A stretch of 64,000 nt of DNA from Saccostrea echinata. Taxonomy: Eukaryota. The stretch is from contig NW_026889803.1 in the NCBI RefSeq assembly GCF_033153115.1, positions 1,860,001 to 1,924,000 on the forward strand, written 5' to 3'. The position numbers were made by a program, and so were the translations under genes. Within the stretch, counting starts at the first letter, position 1, and each line of letters begins with the position of its first letter. Below are positions 56,901 to 60,377 of this stretch, piece by piece. The notes under the pieces are model-generated. The model saw nothing but the letters and a program-made list of their open reading frames with translations, was not told the origin of the DNA and made no database searches.

Positions 56901-59900
56901 ATGAAGTTTTCTATTGGACTTTTTGTTTGTTTTGCGTGGTTCGCGCCTTTTGTTTTGGGGAATGGATTTCTAAAGTCCCCCACCAGCCGTTCATCAGTGT
57001 GGCGATATTTCGGGGAGGCACCGTGGGGGGACACACTTACGCAGAATACGGAGGATATGTCACTTAATTGTGGAGGGACTTATGTAAGCATTCCGTTCAC
57101 CACTAATCACTTGTTTTAATGTTTAATGATATCAAACGCAAAATTTATAGATAATTGAAAACGATTATATTTTTGGAATAATAACCTAAATCCCTCTGAA
57201 GGATAACATAAACAGACTTTTTTCTCCGAAATCAGCAATGTAAACTAGAAGATTTTAATTTATATTCATGTAGATAACTGGGATTAATGATTGCAAAAGT
57301 AGTTTTGTGAGATTTTATATAACATCATAAAATGTGTGCCAAAATTTGTGTAGATTTATATAGAAAATGGCACAAAGACGCATATTTGAACACCAAAGAA
57401 ATCCTACGATTTCCTTATATTAGTAATCTATTATTTGTGTCATTTCTATTCAAAATCGGTTAAAAATTGTATATAGATCAATCCATGCATCATTTTTTTG
57501 TTTGTGTTATGTATCCTTGTTATATCAGATGTGAATGAAATGAAACCTCGCAAATTTCTTTTGATTTATATTATTTTTATTTATTCATTTGTTTATAAGG
57601 CGATAATCGTAATATTTTGTTTATCTTTTGTTATATGTTTACTTCCTGTACACAGAATTAACAGTCGATTAAAAGGAAACCTTTATAAATGTTTTTTTTT
57701 ACTACTATGGTTAACTAATTTTATTTTAAACTGAGGACGATGAGGAGATTTGACACATTAGCAAAATAGCCATGCGAGATCAATTGACTTCTACATTTTT
57801 ATATATCTACCGTGAATATATGAATTCAAAAAAGACCTCTGATATCTTTCATTATATTTAATTAAATAATATTCTATGTTTGTGTTTATCGATAAATATC
57901 TTTTGATTCAAATATACATGAATAACTTAAAAATTATTTCGTATCCGTTGTAACGAAATTAAGATACATTGAAGACAACAATGAGACAACATTGAATTTA
58001 GTTATATGATTTCATAATTTCCTCTTGTCACTCGTGAAATGTCAGTGGTTGAGCTCACTGTATCAATCTACTTTTAAACGCAAGACCTACAAAATGCATT
58101 TACAGCCTTTCCATAATGCATTTTGTTCAAAATAAAATTGGAATCATGTTTAATATGAAACCAGGAATTAACATACAACACCACCACTGGCCTAAAGTTT
58201 CTCTTTTCATTGAAAACCTTCAATAATCTTTGCATTCCTCAAGTTTACCGGTGTCTATGAGAACCCCCTCCCCTTTTTTTATCAATATATCCAGAAAATG
58301 CGTTTAAATTAAAATAAATTTTTAAAAAAAATCTTTTTGTACAGACTGATGGAGACCTGACGGGAAAATGTGGTCGATGTGGGGATTACGTCGGGGGATC
58401 AAGACCAAATGAGGCCCCAAACGGACAGTATGCTTCCAAAAGGTCCACCTACATCTATCGAGAAGGGGGTGTAATAAATGTCACAGTGCAGGTCACAGCA
58501 CGTGCCAATGGCGGCTTTTTCAAATTCAAGCTTTGTAAATCTGACGCCACTACCGAGGCCTCTCAGGTCTGCTTTGACCAAAATCCCCTGAAACTCGCCA
58601 ATACCGCGGATCAAACTATCATACAGATACCTGATATAGACGGGGATATCGTCGTTCCGCTCCAGTTACCAGCAGGACTAACATGTGATCACTGTGTCAT
58701 GCAGTGGACGTGGGTGACAGGTAACCGATGTCGTAACTGCCAAATTAAAATCAATTTCATTTTAGTGTAATCGTCTTTTAAGTATTTTGCACTGAAACTT
58801 TAATGATTAAATTTCATCCTTTTTTTAAAATTGTATCTTTTAGCTAGAGACTGGAGATGTGGCAGTATGAATGGTCAGTTGGTTTGTGGTATGGGATACG
58901 GAATGCAGCCCACATTTGTAAATTGTGCCGATTTCAAAATTCTTGCTCAGGGAGCATCTGTTCCGGCGGATTTTCACTGGCCAGATTACAACTCTGTATA
59001 CGCCACCATTCACGGAGGACACACTGGATCTGGGACTACTCCAGGTAAATATACCGTAGGTTTGCAATGCTCTTGTAAGTCACAATGGTGAGTGTGTCAC
59101 TTGTAAATTTAACAAAAATTAACGAAAAATAAGATCTAAGTTAGCAAATTGGGATATCCTTTTGTCTCTTTCTCCTAACAGCACCTGTTCCAACTACATC
59201 TAACCCTGTTATTGTCATCCCTACGACCACTGCAGCGACAACTACCGCAGCACCCGCAACTACTACTCCATTCCCGATCATCACAAATCCACCAAGTACA
59301 AGCCCTGCACCTGCCACAACCACTGGTGCTCCTCCAACCACCACTGACAAACTAATCATAGTAACACCAACACCAGTTATAACCACACCAAACCCTCAGC
59401 AAACCAGCAGGCCACCATCATCACTAACTACAACACCACCCCTACCACAGTCCACAGAAAAACTGGTTCCCGGCCCCATAATTCCACCAATTGCCCCATT
59501 GCCAGTGGCCCCAGTTGCTGCTGGGGGTTCCGGTATTCTTGGTGGTCTATCATTGGGAAGTATGATAGCGCCTCTGGGTCTTGGTCTAGGTGGACTGATG
59601 CTTTTGATGGCAATGAATGGAAGAGAAAACGGAGGCAACGTTGAATACATGGATATTCCACCTATGTCTATGCCTATGATTTCTCAGCCTGTACAGCCAA
59701 TGTTCTCGCCACCATATGTCCCGTCATTTGGATACACTATGCTACCTGCTCCAGTGGTTGTCCCAATCGTGGAGGAGCCTATTCCAGTCAAGAAGGGATA
59801 CGGGAAAAGTTATGGTAAAAATGGAGGTGGTTATAAACAAACAAGTTACGGCAGCAACAATTATAGAGGTTATGGAAACAGAGGGAAGAAATATGGTATG

Positions 59901-60377
59901 GGCATTGTGAATCCGGGCTACGGAGTTAATGGAGGAGGCTACGGCTATAATAAAGTACAATATCAACACAATTATAATCCAACATCATACGGCAACAATC
60001 GTCCAAACAGAGGAGATGAGCAGTTTTTCCAGCTTCCCAGCAATCACGCCTTCACCAGGATGCAATATGACGAAGAACCGGAAGTCAATAAAGTTAAAGC
60101 GAAGGAAGTTATTGAAAACCAGCCACATAAATTTGATATCTCAGCATATAGTAAGAAATGCCCGATCTCACAGCAGACGTGCAAACCAAGATACGGAGCG
60201 AATGAACCCACAGTATACGGGGCTGTTGATATAGTCAGTATGATATGCGAGCTACACTGCTCTGCACGCAATCCTAACTGCCCAGCAGAGATGTGCTCGT
60301 GCACGTGCAAAGAAGAGCCAGCAGCCGATATAAATTTACAGGCCAGAATAGCTGCTGCAAGTCTGTTTGGAAAGTAA
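56901..60377 (+). CDS. Secreted AA15 LPMO-fold (chitin-binding type-4-like) protein lacking the His brace, with T/P-rich, G/Y/N-rich and Cys-rich C-terminal regions
   Basis: Exons 56901(or 56886)-57083, 58345-58720, 58844-59044 and 59182-60377 are in frame. Signal peptide followed by P.SRSS.WR, LNCGG, GKCGRCGD, RPNEAP, LPAGLTCDHCVMQW and FVNCAD. Confidence 0.88.

Follow-up and report, generated by a model that had tools for sequence, protein, structure and literature searches.

The closest described relative of the protein studied here is TdAA15A (PDB entry 5MSZ), a lytic polysaccharide monooxygenase (LPMO) of the AA15 family in which copper is bound by His1 and His91, Tyr24 and Tyr166 flank the flat face, and the ten cysteines are those reported as conserved in the family (PMC5823890). 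This histidine brace is required for LPMO chemistry (PMC10154629), and in AA15 proteins it is described as conserved (PMC5823890, PMC9156745, PMC8393829). The insect group I protein LPMO15-1 keeps the brace, cuts chitin, and carries two cysteine modules with the spacing C-x15-C-x3-C-x6-9-C-x4-C-x-C behind its AA15 domain (PMC9156745). A brace-less LPMO fold is known from a fungus: LsAA9B (Frandsen et al. 2019, as cited in PMC7949027 and PMC10354095) has neither His brace nor copper, and brace-less AA9 members retain carbohydrate-binding features (PMC7949027). Here we describe a gene of the oyster Saccostrea echinata (contig NW_026889803.1 of assembly GCF_033153115.1), located in a window of 64,000 nucleotides (contig positions 1,860,001 to 1,924,000; all coordinates below count from the first letter of the window), which encodes a protein with an AA15 fold from which both brace histidines are absent. 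In the literature searched, most subscription journals lying outside its coverage, we found no report of a brace-less animal AA15 and nothing on Chitin_bind_3 together with shell and mantle, and the accessible portions of a 2026 preprint on wood-boring bivalves and of PMC7747718 hold no passage on AA15 or on LPMO loss.

The gene lies on the forward strand and has four exons (56901-57083, 58345-58720, 58844-59044 and 59182-60377), all introns being GT-AG. Its open reading frame (ORF) of 651 residues corresponds to RefSeq XP_061198301.1 (stored as P0004), which starts five codons upstream at 56886; P0004 positions equal those of the ORF, used below, plus five. Exon 1 encodes a signal peptide (residues 1-20) and the start of the AA15-fold domain, exon 2 the core of the LPMO_10/AA15 fold (PF03067, E 2e-10), and exon 3 the segment with Trp190 and Gln208-Pro-Thr-Phe211, the end of the domain, an extension and a His pair. 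The domain scores 48.5 bits against PF03067 (LPMO_10; cut-off 23), and its sole sequence match in PDB is TdAA15A (E 2e-28, 38% identity). A structure model was built from a 96-sequence alignment, a single-sequence prediction having been discarded (mean predicted local distance difference test score, pLDDT, 37.5); it is confident over the AA15 domain and a C-terminal Cys module and disordered in between. Overlaid on 5MSZ, this model gives Z 25.9 and a root-mean-square deviation of 1.8 Å over 189 residues, with Asn26 of P0004 on 5MSZ residue 1, whereas the second-best chain reaches Z 15.2 and the AA9 chains at most 9.5. The AA15 fold which the initial annotation had proposed from the letters is thus borne out by the model overlay, and LsAA9B, which shares a brace-less LPMO fold with the oyster protein, belongs to another family and kingdom, with no comparable matrix-type tail mentioned in the available parts of PMC7949027 and PMC10354095.

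Both copper ligands are replaced by asparagine (TdAA15A equivalents were read by counting along the 5MSZ sequence alignment). The His1 site is Asn21 (AAT, 56961-56963) at the predicted mature N-terminus, where a signal peptide ending in FVLG is followed by NGFLKSP; the signal peptide was placed by hydropathy and homology, and like that of TdAA15A it ends in Gly, the residue which precedes His1 in 86/117 brace-bearing relatives. The His91 site is Asn116 (AAT, 58507-58509) in VTARANGG, with a one-residue insertion before it: Ala113 stands in the Ala89 column, yet an Arg is inserted directly after it. Exon 1 encodes no histidine, and the first in the protein, residue 177, is the sole one of the domain and is Tyr in S. 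cucullata. The conserved glutamate, to which a second-sphere role is ascribed in AA10 enzymes, is also gone, Glu182 being Pro209 in the motif QPTF (58906-58917); the axial Tyr184 site in the same motif is Phe211 and retains its aromatic character. On the substrate face the Tyr24 site, aromatic in most brace-bearing relatives, is Thr50 (57048-57050, from the alignment), whereas the Tyr166 site keeps an aromatic residue as Trp190. The Asn164 site is Arg188. All ten scaffold cysteines are kept, where the initial annotation had counted most of them; its other motifs and regions (NGFLKSP, VTARANGG, QPTF, IHGGH and the successive tail segments) were all recovered, as was its central observation that the whole brace is missing. 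Without the brace, established LPMO chemistry allows neither LPMO-style holding of copper nor cutting of polysaccharide, and the oyster protein is almost certainly not a copper LPMO. It is an AA15 by descent that departs from AA15 enzymes at His1, His91 and the glutamate.

An assembly error, a rare allele or a decaying relic could give the same picture, a reading which we consider hardly credible. Splicing was followed in contigs from four RNA-like runs (guessed to be RNA, from at most three samples in two studies, without tissue record): intron 1 is joined in contigs of one of the four, where a single contig links the exon 1 donor to 58345 with a short side of only 21 letters, while intron 2 is joined in two runs and intron 3 in all four, and a run X3 contig whose loose end, at 61057, is poly(A) defines a 3' untranslated region at 60378-61057. 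The frame is open over its 651 codons, and no alternative letter occurs in the Asn21 codon in runs X1 and X3, which come from two studies, or in the Asn116 codon in run X1. Six coding variants were present in the reads, of which three alter a residue and none falls in the brace region, and we found nothing that supports error, allele or relic. The prospect that transcripts or orthologues would have His at position 1 also came to nothing: it is Asn in the contigs and in the Crassostrea virginica orthologue, which has both asparagines, and S. cucullata, with a gene model lacking exon 1, has the second. Spliced contigs, independent runs and orthologues together refute the assembly-error reading, and the fixation of the loss in orthologues, with a brace-less state common to scallops (see below), argues against an allele or a relic.

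Conservation points the same way. Identity to C. virginica is 186/200 in the domain, 24/25 in the extension behind it and 48/55 in the Cys module, against 77/101, 31/40, 36/53 and 37/62 in the low-complexity parts, and a domain conserved so far above these parts suggests purifying selection; a functional extracellular protein is very likely. The pseudo-enzyme put forward in the initial annotation is supported by the loss of both histidines and the glutamate, by fixation of the loss in orthologues and its sharing with scallops, by splicing of the gene, and by a domain which is among the most conserved parts of the protein. Some further observations concern the gene and its relatives. At 58937 the window reads A and all four runs read C, so that residue 218 is Lys in the former and Thr, as in the orthologues, in the latter; the window letter is a rarer letter or an error. 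One contig extends 51 bases into intron 1, and 57471-57518 in the same intron is a dispersed repeat, gathering contigs whose two ends are both loose. The P0001 gene model lacks exon 1, and a Logan protein resembling the tail of the gene (P0020) was rejected as an artefact, its Pro, Ala, Thr and Ser changes fitting wholesale C-to-T conversion. A metagenome scan returned two brace-type AA15 loci of 36-38% identity and no DNA of an oyster orthologue.

The oyster gene has a brace-less neighbour. A paralogue begins 1.07 kb past its stop, with an exon 1 (61447-61644, forward strand, ending in a GT donor) that is 65% identical to P0003, has Arg at the His1 site behind a short N-terminal extension, and is covered by a run X1 contig whose loose end coincides with the donor; the remainder of this gene lies outside the window. 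The paralogue has Thr and Val at the two face-aromatic sites. Asn occupies the second brace site of its full-length relatives P0003 and P0012 (Magallana gigas), both of which have an FFxLP motif and the Cys module. Both histidines are likewise absent from the scallop proteins OWF56039.1 (Mizuhopecten) and XP_060072890.1 (Ylistrum), each with the extension motif, the stalk, the hydrophobic segment and a degenerate Cys end. In a careful tree of 44 domains (20 brace-less, and 24 brace-bearing chosen from a first tree, with five active-site columns excluded), six proteins, comprising the group of both oyster genes and the two scallop proteins, form one brace-less clade with support 99/96. Because this clade spans oysters and scallops, its loss of the brace is older than the oyster-scallop split, which is Palaeozoic. 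The protein P0053 of the freshwater mussel Sinanodonta has a similar tail plan and joins the clade at 83 in a quick tree, a placement lost in the careful tree.

Brace loss extends beyond this clade. The representative search listed 150 of 1228 matching proteins, and 169 domains from the stored proteins were aligned, leaving 160 after removal of nine near-copies, fragments and misaligned rows. Both histidines are present in 126 of these; 20 are brace-less (17 with both sites seen, three from records without the N-terminus), 11 have the second His and no N-terminus, and three have one His. The 15 brace-less rows with source names are 14 mollusc domains and one brachiopod domain, in a set that is biased towards the query and in which most brace-bearing rows are unidentified, so that it neither gives a frequency for the family nor shows the loss to be restricted to molluscs. 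On the careful tree the brace label changes seven times (5-7 in bootstraps), the starred branches force at least two changes, and a single origin of the loss is rejected by the approximately unbiased test (p-AU 0.027) under LG+G4, a model with which true clades, too, are at times rejected. These trees indicate that the brace was lost more than once, and both the paralogue at 61447 and the recurrent loss across molluscs had been overlooked by the initial annotation.

Much of the remaining active site differs between the two kinds of domain, in counts which are descriptive and carry no statistical test since the rows are related. Glu182 is kept in 6/18 brace-less against 119/124 brace-bearing rows, the Asn164 site in 4/19 against 110/125, and an aromatic at the Tyr24 site in 7/20 against 108/125, whereas the Tyr166 site is similarly aromatic in both (13/18 and 106/123) and core residues stay in brace-less rows (Trp14 site 18/19, Arg10 site 19/19). 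Tails are also longer, with a median of 431 residues in brace-less and 99 in brace-bearing rows, and exceed 300 residues in 15/19 of the former and 14/117 of the latter. Two other lineages are of separate interest. P0115 (Dreissena), P0086 and P0105 form a distinct brace-less AA15 lineage, in which basic cleavage-like sites precede a Cys-rich and highly conserved C-terminal domain reminiscent of a Spaetzle-type cystine knot, Pfam and PDB sequence searches having matched nothing there; and P0021 (Lingula) combines an intact AA15 domain with a second, internal, truncated and brace-less one, in what may be a fused gene model.

The tail of about 430 residues, which sets the oyster protein apart from TdAA15A, consists of several distinct parts. 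Directly behind the domain is an extension (58945-59022) with a P-x-x-F-x-W/H-P-x-Y/F motif and a helix, well modelled to about residue 240 of P0004, and its motif is confined to clade members among the stored proteins. Exon 4 starts with a Thr/Pro-rich stalk (59182-59501; 27% Thr, 24% Pro; pLDDT below 50, predicted disordered), followed by a Gly/Leu/Met hydrophobic segment (59502-59621), the best 19-residue hydropathy of which is 1.82, that of a borderline membrane helix, with values of 1.5-2.0 in all nine clade sequences checked. Next come a region rich in Met, Pro and Val by composition (59622-59786) and a basic low-complexity region (59787-60011; isoelectric point about 10; 25% Gly, 17% Tyr, 16% Asn, 11% Lys), the protein containing 11 Tyr-Gly dipeptides. 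The C-terminal part (60012-60311) has conserved FFxLP and DxEP motifs and a 6-Cys module, C587-x21-C609-x3-C613-x6-C620-x4-C625-x-C627, plus C580 and C629, so that the module read by the initial annotation is present and its spacing is corrected to C-x21-C-x3-C-x6-C-x4-C-x-C. A C-xn-C-x3-C-x6-C-x4-C-x-C module also follows the AA15 domain of insect LPMO15-1, a likeness without demonstrated orthology, the oyster protein having one such module with a first spacer of 21 and the insect protein two (PMC9156745).

The gain of tails claimed in the initial annotation holds only in part. Among brace-bearing relatives the 6-Cys module also follows the domain in 61/126, and 25/101 have a Thr/Pro/Ser-rich stretch, so the stalk and module are ordinary AA15 accessories, and disordered C-terminal extensions are common among LPMOs generally (PMC10154629). 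The novelties of the clade are the post-domain extension, the hydrophobic segment and the Gly/Tyr/Asn region; a 40-residue span at least half Gly, Tyr and Asn is found in 5/18 brace-less tails and in none of 88 brace-bearing ones. Gly/Tyr-rich shell framework proteins of the shematrin and KRMP type are known, and the basic Gly/Tyr/Asn/Lys stretch resembles them in composition alone. None of the six proteins checked contains the LGxxGxxG shell motif (PMC11464482), and an Atlas search gave no usable match for the C-terminal part, the domain matching LPMO_10-type clusters only.

The extension ends in His243-Gly-Gly-His246 (59011-59022), which raises the question whether a metal is still bound at a moved site, either by this His pair or by the two asparagines and the free N-terminus, the latter holding calcium rather than copper. 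At least two His lie 16-45 residues past the last Asp of the domain in 6/6 clade rows against 12/104 brace-bearing rows, and in three oyster species both asparagines persist wherever their sites are covered. However, this span of residues was picked post hoc, the histidines do not align between lineages, and model confidence there is about 50; the clade replacements vary (Asn, Arg, Gln or Glu at the first site; Asn, Ala or Pro at the second), and at the His1 site 14 of the 17 replacements are one base change away from a His codon. We therefore regard a relocated metal site as improbable.

Where a brace-less AA15 might act is indicated by shell proteomes, the sole tissue-level data found for such proteins. 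LPMO_10 is among the domains of M. gigas shell proteins, two of which are listed (XP_011449016.2, XP_011449977.2), and one mantle-differential LPMO_10 gene each, whatever its brace state, is reported in M. gigas and Pinctada fucata (PMC11464482). The range 37-231 of XP_011449016.2 stops close to residue 232, the end of the domain in the paralogue, a coincidence that is no more than suggestive. The P. fucata nacre table of PMC13190495 contains g9334, called LPMO_10 and with an intact brace, and also v4.1_scaf_04a.g12541.t1 (Table S2B, row 181), which is entered there as uncharacterised and piccolo-like, carries no domain call and has XP_061190873.1 as its listed BLAST hit; by eye, this protein has the AA15 pattern of cysteines and motifs and is His-free at both sites. 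Among the Haliotis laevigata proteins of PMC6003135, CLC_18633 (nacre and prisms; at most nine peptides in the prism insoluble matrix) has Leu at the second His site, and idb_67370 resembles the brace-less P0118, its visible sequence stopping at the brace site. Brace-less AA15s of other lineages thus appear, on their sequences, to be shell proteins in two mollusc classes (Pinctada, Haliotis). Their likeness to the oyster protein lies in a secreted AA15 fold and long low-complexity tails; the Pinctada and Haliotis sequences are unlike those of the oyster-scallop clade.

We read the oyster protein as a secreted, copper-free pseudo-LPMO with an adaptor role in a chitinous extracellular matrix, for which the mantle-made shell framework is the likeliest candidate, and hold this reading as a whole in even balance. 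Of its parts, a structural adaptor in a chitinous matrix is rather probable, an adaptor in some chitinous or mucous matrix quite likely, and the shell as that matrix could go either way. The dead AA15 fold would attach to chitin, or to some other surface of the matrix, and leave it uncut, an O-glycosylated Thr/Pro stalk could act as spacer for the fold, and the Gly/Leu and Gly/Tyr/Asn segments may self-associate, possibly followed by Tyr cross-linking; the 6-Cys module might form a second anchor, in which case a single molecule could bridge fibrils to matrix protein. The matrix or biomineralisation role suggested in the initial annotation is plausible by way of the brace-less shell AA15s of other lineages, although no clade member was matched in the shell tables searched, and of its chitin anchoring by the fold the Trp at the Tyr166 site stands in favour.

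Several points weigh against this reading. CLC_1125 of H. laevigata retains the second His and is more abundant in nacre (PMC6003135), and with brace-intact AA15s also in shells, and more abundant there, presence in the shell does not require brace loss. The clade motifs were unmatched in the P. fucata nacre table as available (PMC13190495), as were LPMO terms and motifs in the supplements of PMC10543319 and PMC6231486, which may not hold sequences, and the relatives counted above were picked by likeness to the oyster protein and are non-independent. Thr at the Tyr24 site, Arg at the Asn164 site and a paralogue with neither face aromatic also weaken the case for chitin binding by the fold.

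The same non-catalytic adaptor could instead belong to a non-shell matrix, such as gut or gill chitin and mucus, ligament, periostracum, or larval adhesive or cement, a possibility on the unlikely side. A mucin-like stalk and a Tyr-rich basic region suit any secreted matrix, the clade was undetected in the shell tables searched, and insect AA15s have roles in gut and cuticle (PMC9156745); the tissue-level data on brace-less AA15s, however, come from shells, and LPMO_10 genes are mantle-differential in both bivalves mentioned. Poorly kept face aromatics on a highly conserved domain would also suit a fold that has become a protein-binding or regulatory module, either in a membrane-tethered surface protein, or as a decoy that shields chitin from active LPMOs and chitinases or partners them, active AA15s being present in the same shell compartment. 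The hydrophobic segment found in all nine clade sequences would serve as the tether, yet it is Gly-rich and borderline with no basic cluster behind it in oysters, and a membrane tether would leave the 6-Cys module in the cytoplasm; we consider such a module unlikely. The structural adaptor remains our preferred reading.

The rest of the window has the following features. An upstream gene on the forward strand (48197-56328) has a weak XPG-like match (E 0.03, under the cut-off). Poly(A) marks a loose end at 56328, and the contigs of the AA15 gene reach no further 5' than 56530, roughly 200 bases on. Reverse-strand exons at 43228-45525 belong to an acetyl-CoA transporter gene (PF13000). The intervals 2-2355 (forward), 14168-15364 (reverse) and 17331-18381 (forward) hold an LTR-type (long terminal repeat) integrase ORF, a zinc-finger ORF and further ORFs that resemble, by eye, remnants of LINE (long interspersed nuclear element) reverse transcriptase, the one tested being without a Pfam match. 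A weak CBM20 starch-binding match at 21371-21703 (reverse) is under the cut-off.

Taken beyond this locus, the comparisons suggest that molluscs repeatedly, at least two and probably five to seven times, made AA15 a non-catalytic chitin-matrix adaptor with lineage-specific tails. Shell frameworks would then contain a class of proteins, the pseudo-LPMOs, that has so far gone unrecognised because its members are recorded as LPMOs, mucins or 'uncharacterised'. The oyster-scallop clade, tandem pair included, would represent one old branch of this class and might have a His metal site that has moved; we put this forward tentatively, at somewhat less than an even chance. The His brace has counted as the defining mark of AA15, and shell proteins with an LPMO_10 hit have been read as carbohydrate-active enzymes. 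If some shell AA15s are instead adaptors derived from dead enzymes, the annotation of shell proteomes would need revision, biomineralisation would gain a candidate linker between chitin and matrix proteins, and biochemists would have natural copper-free LPMO folds from animals, for which the oyster gene and its neighbour offer a testable pair in a farmed species.

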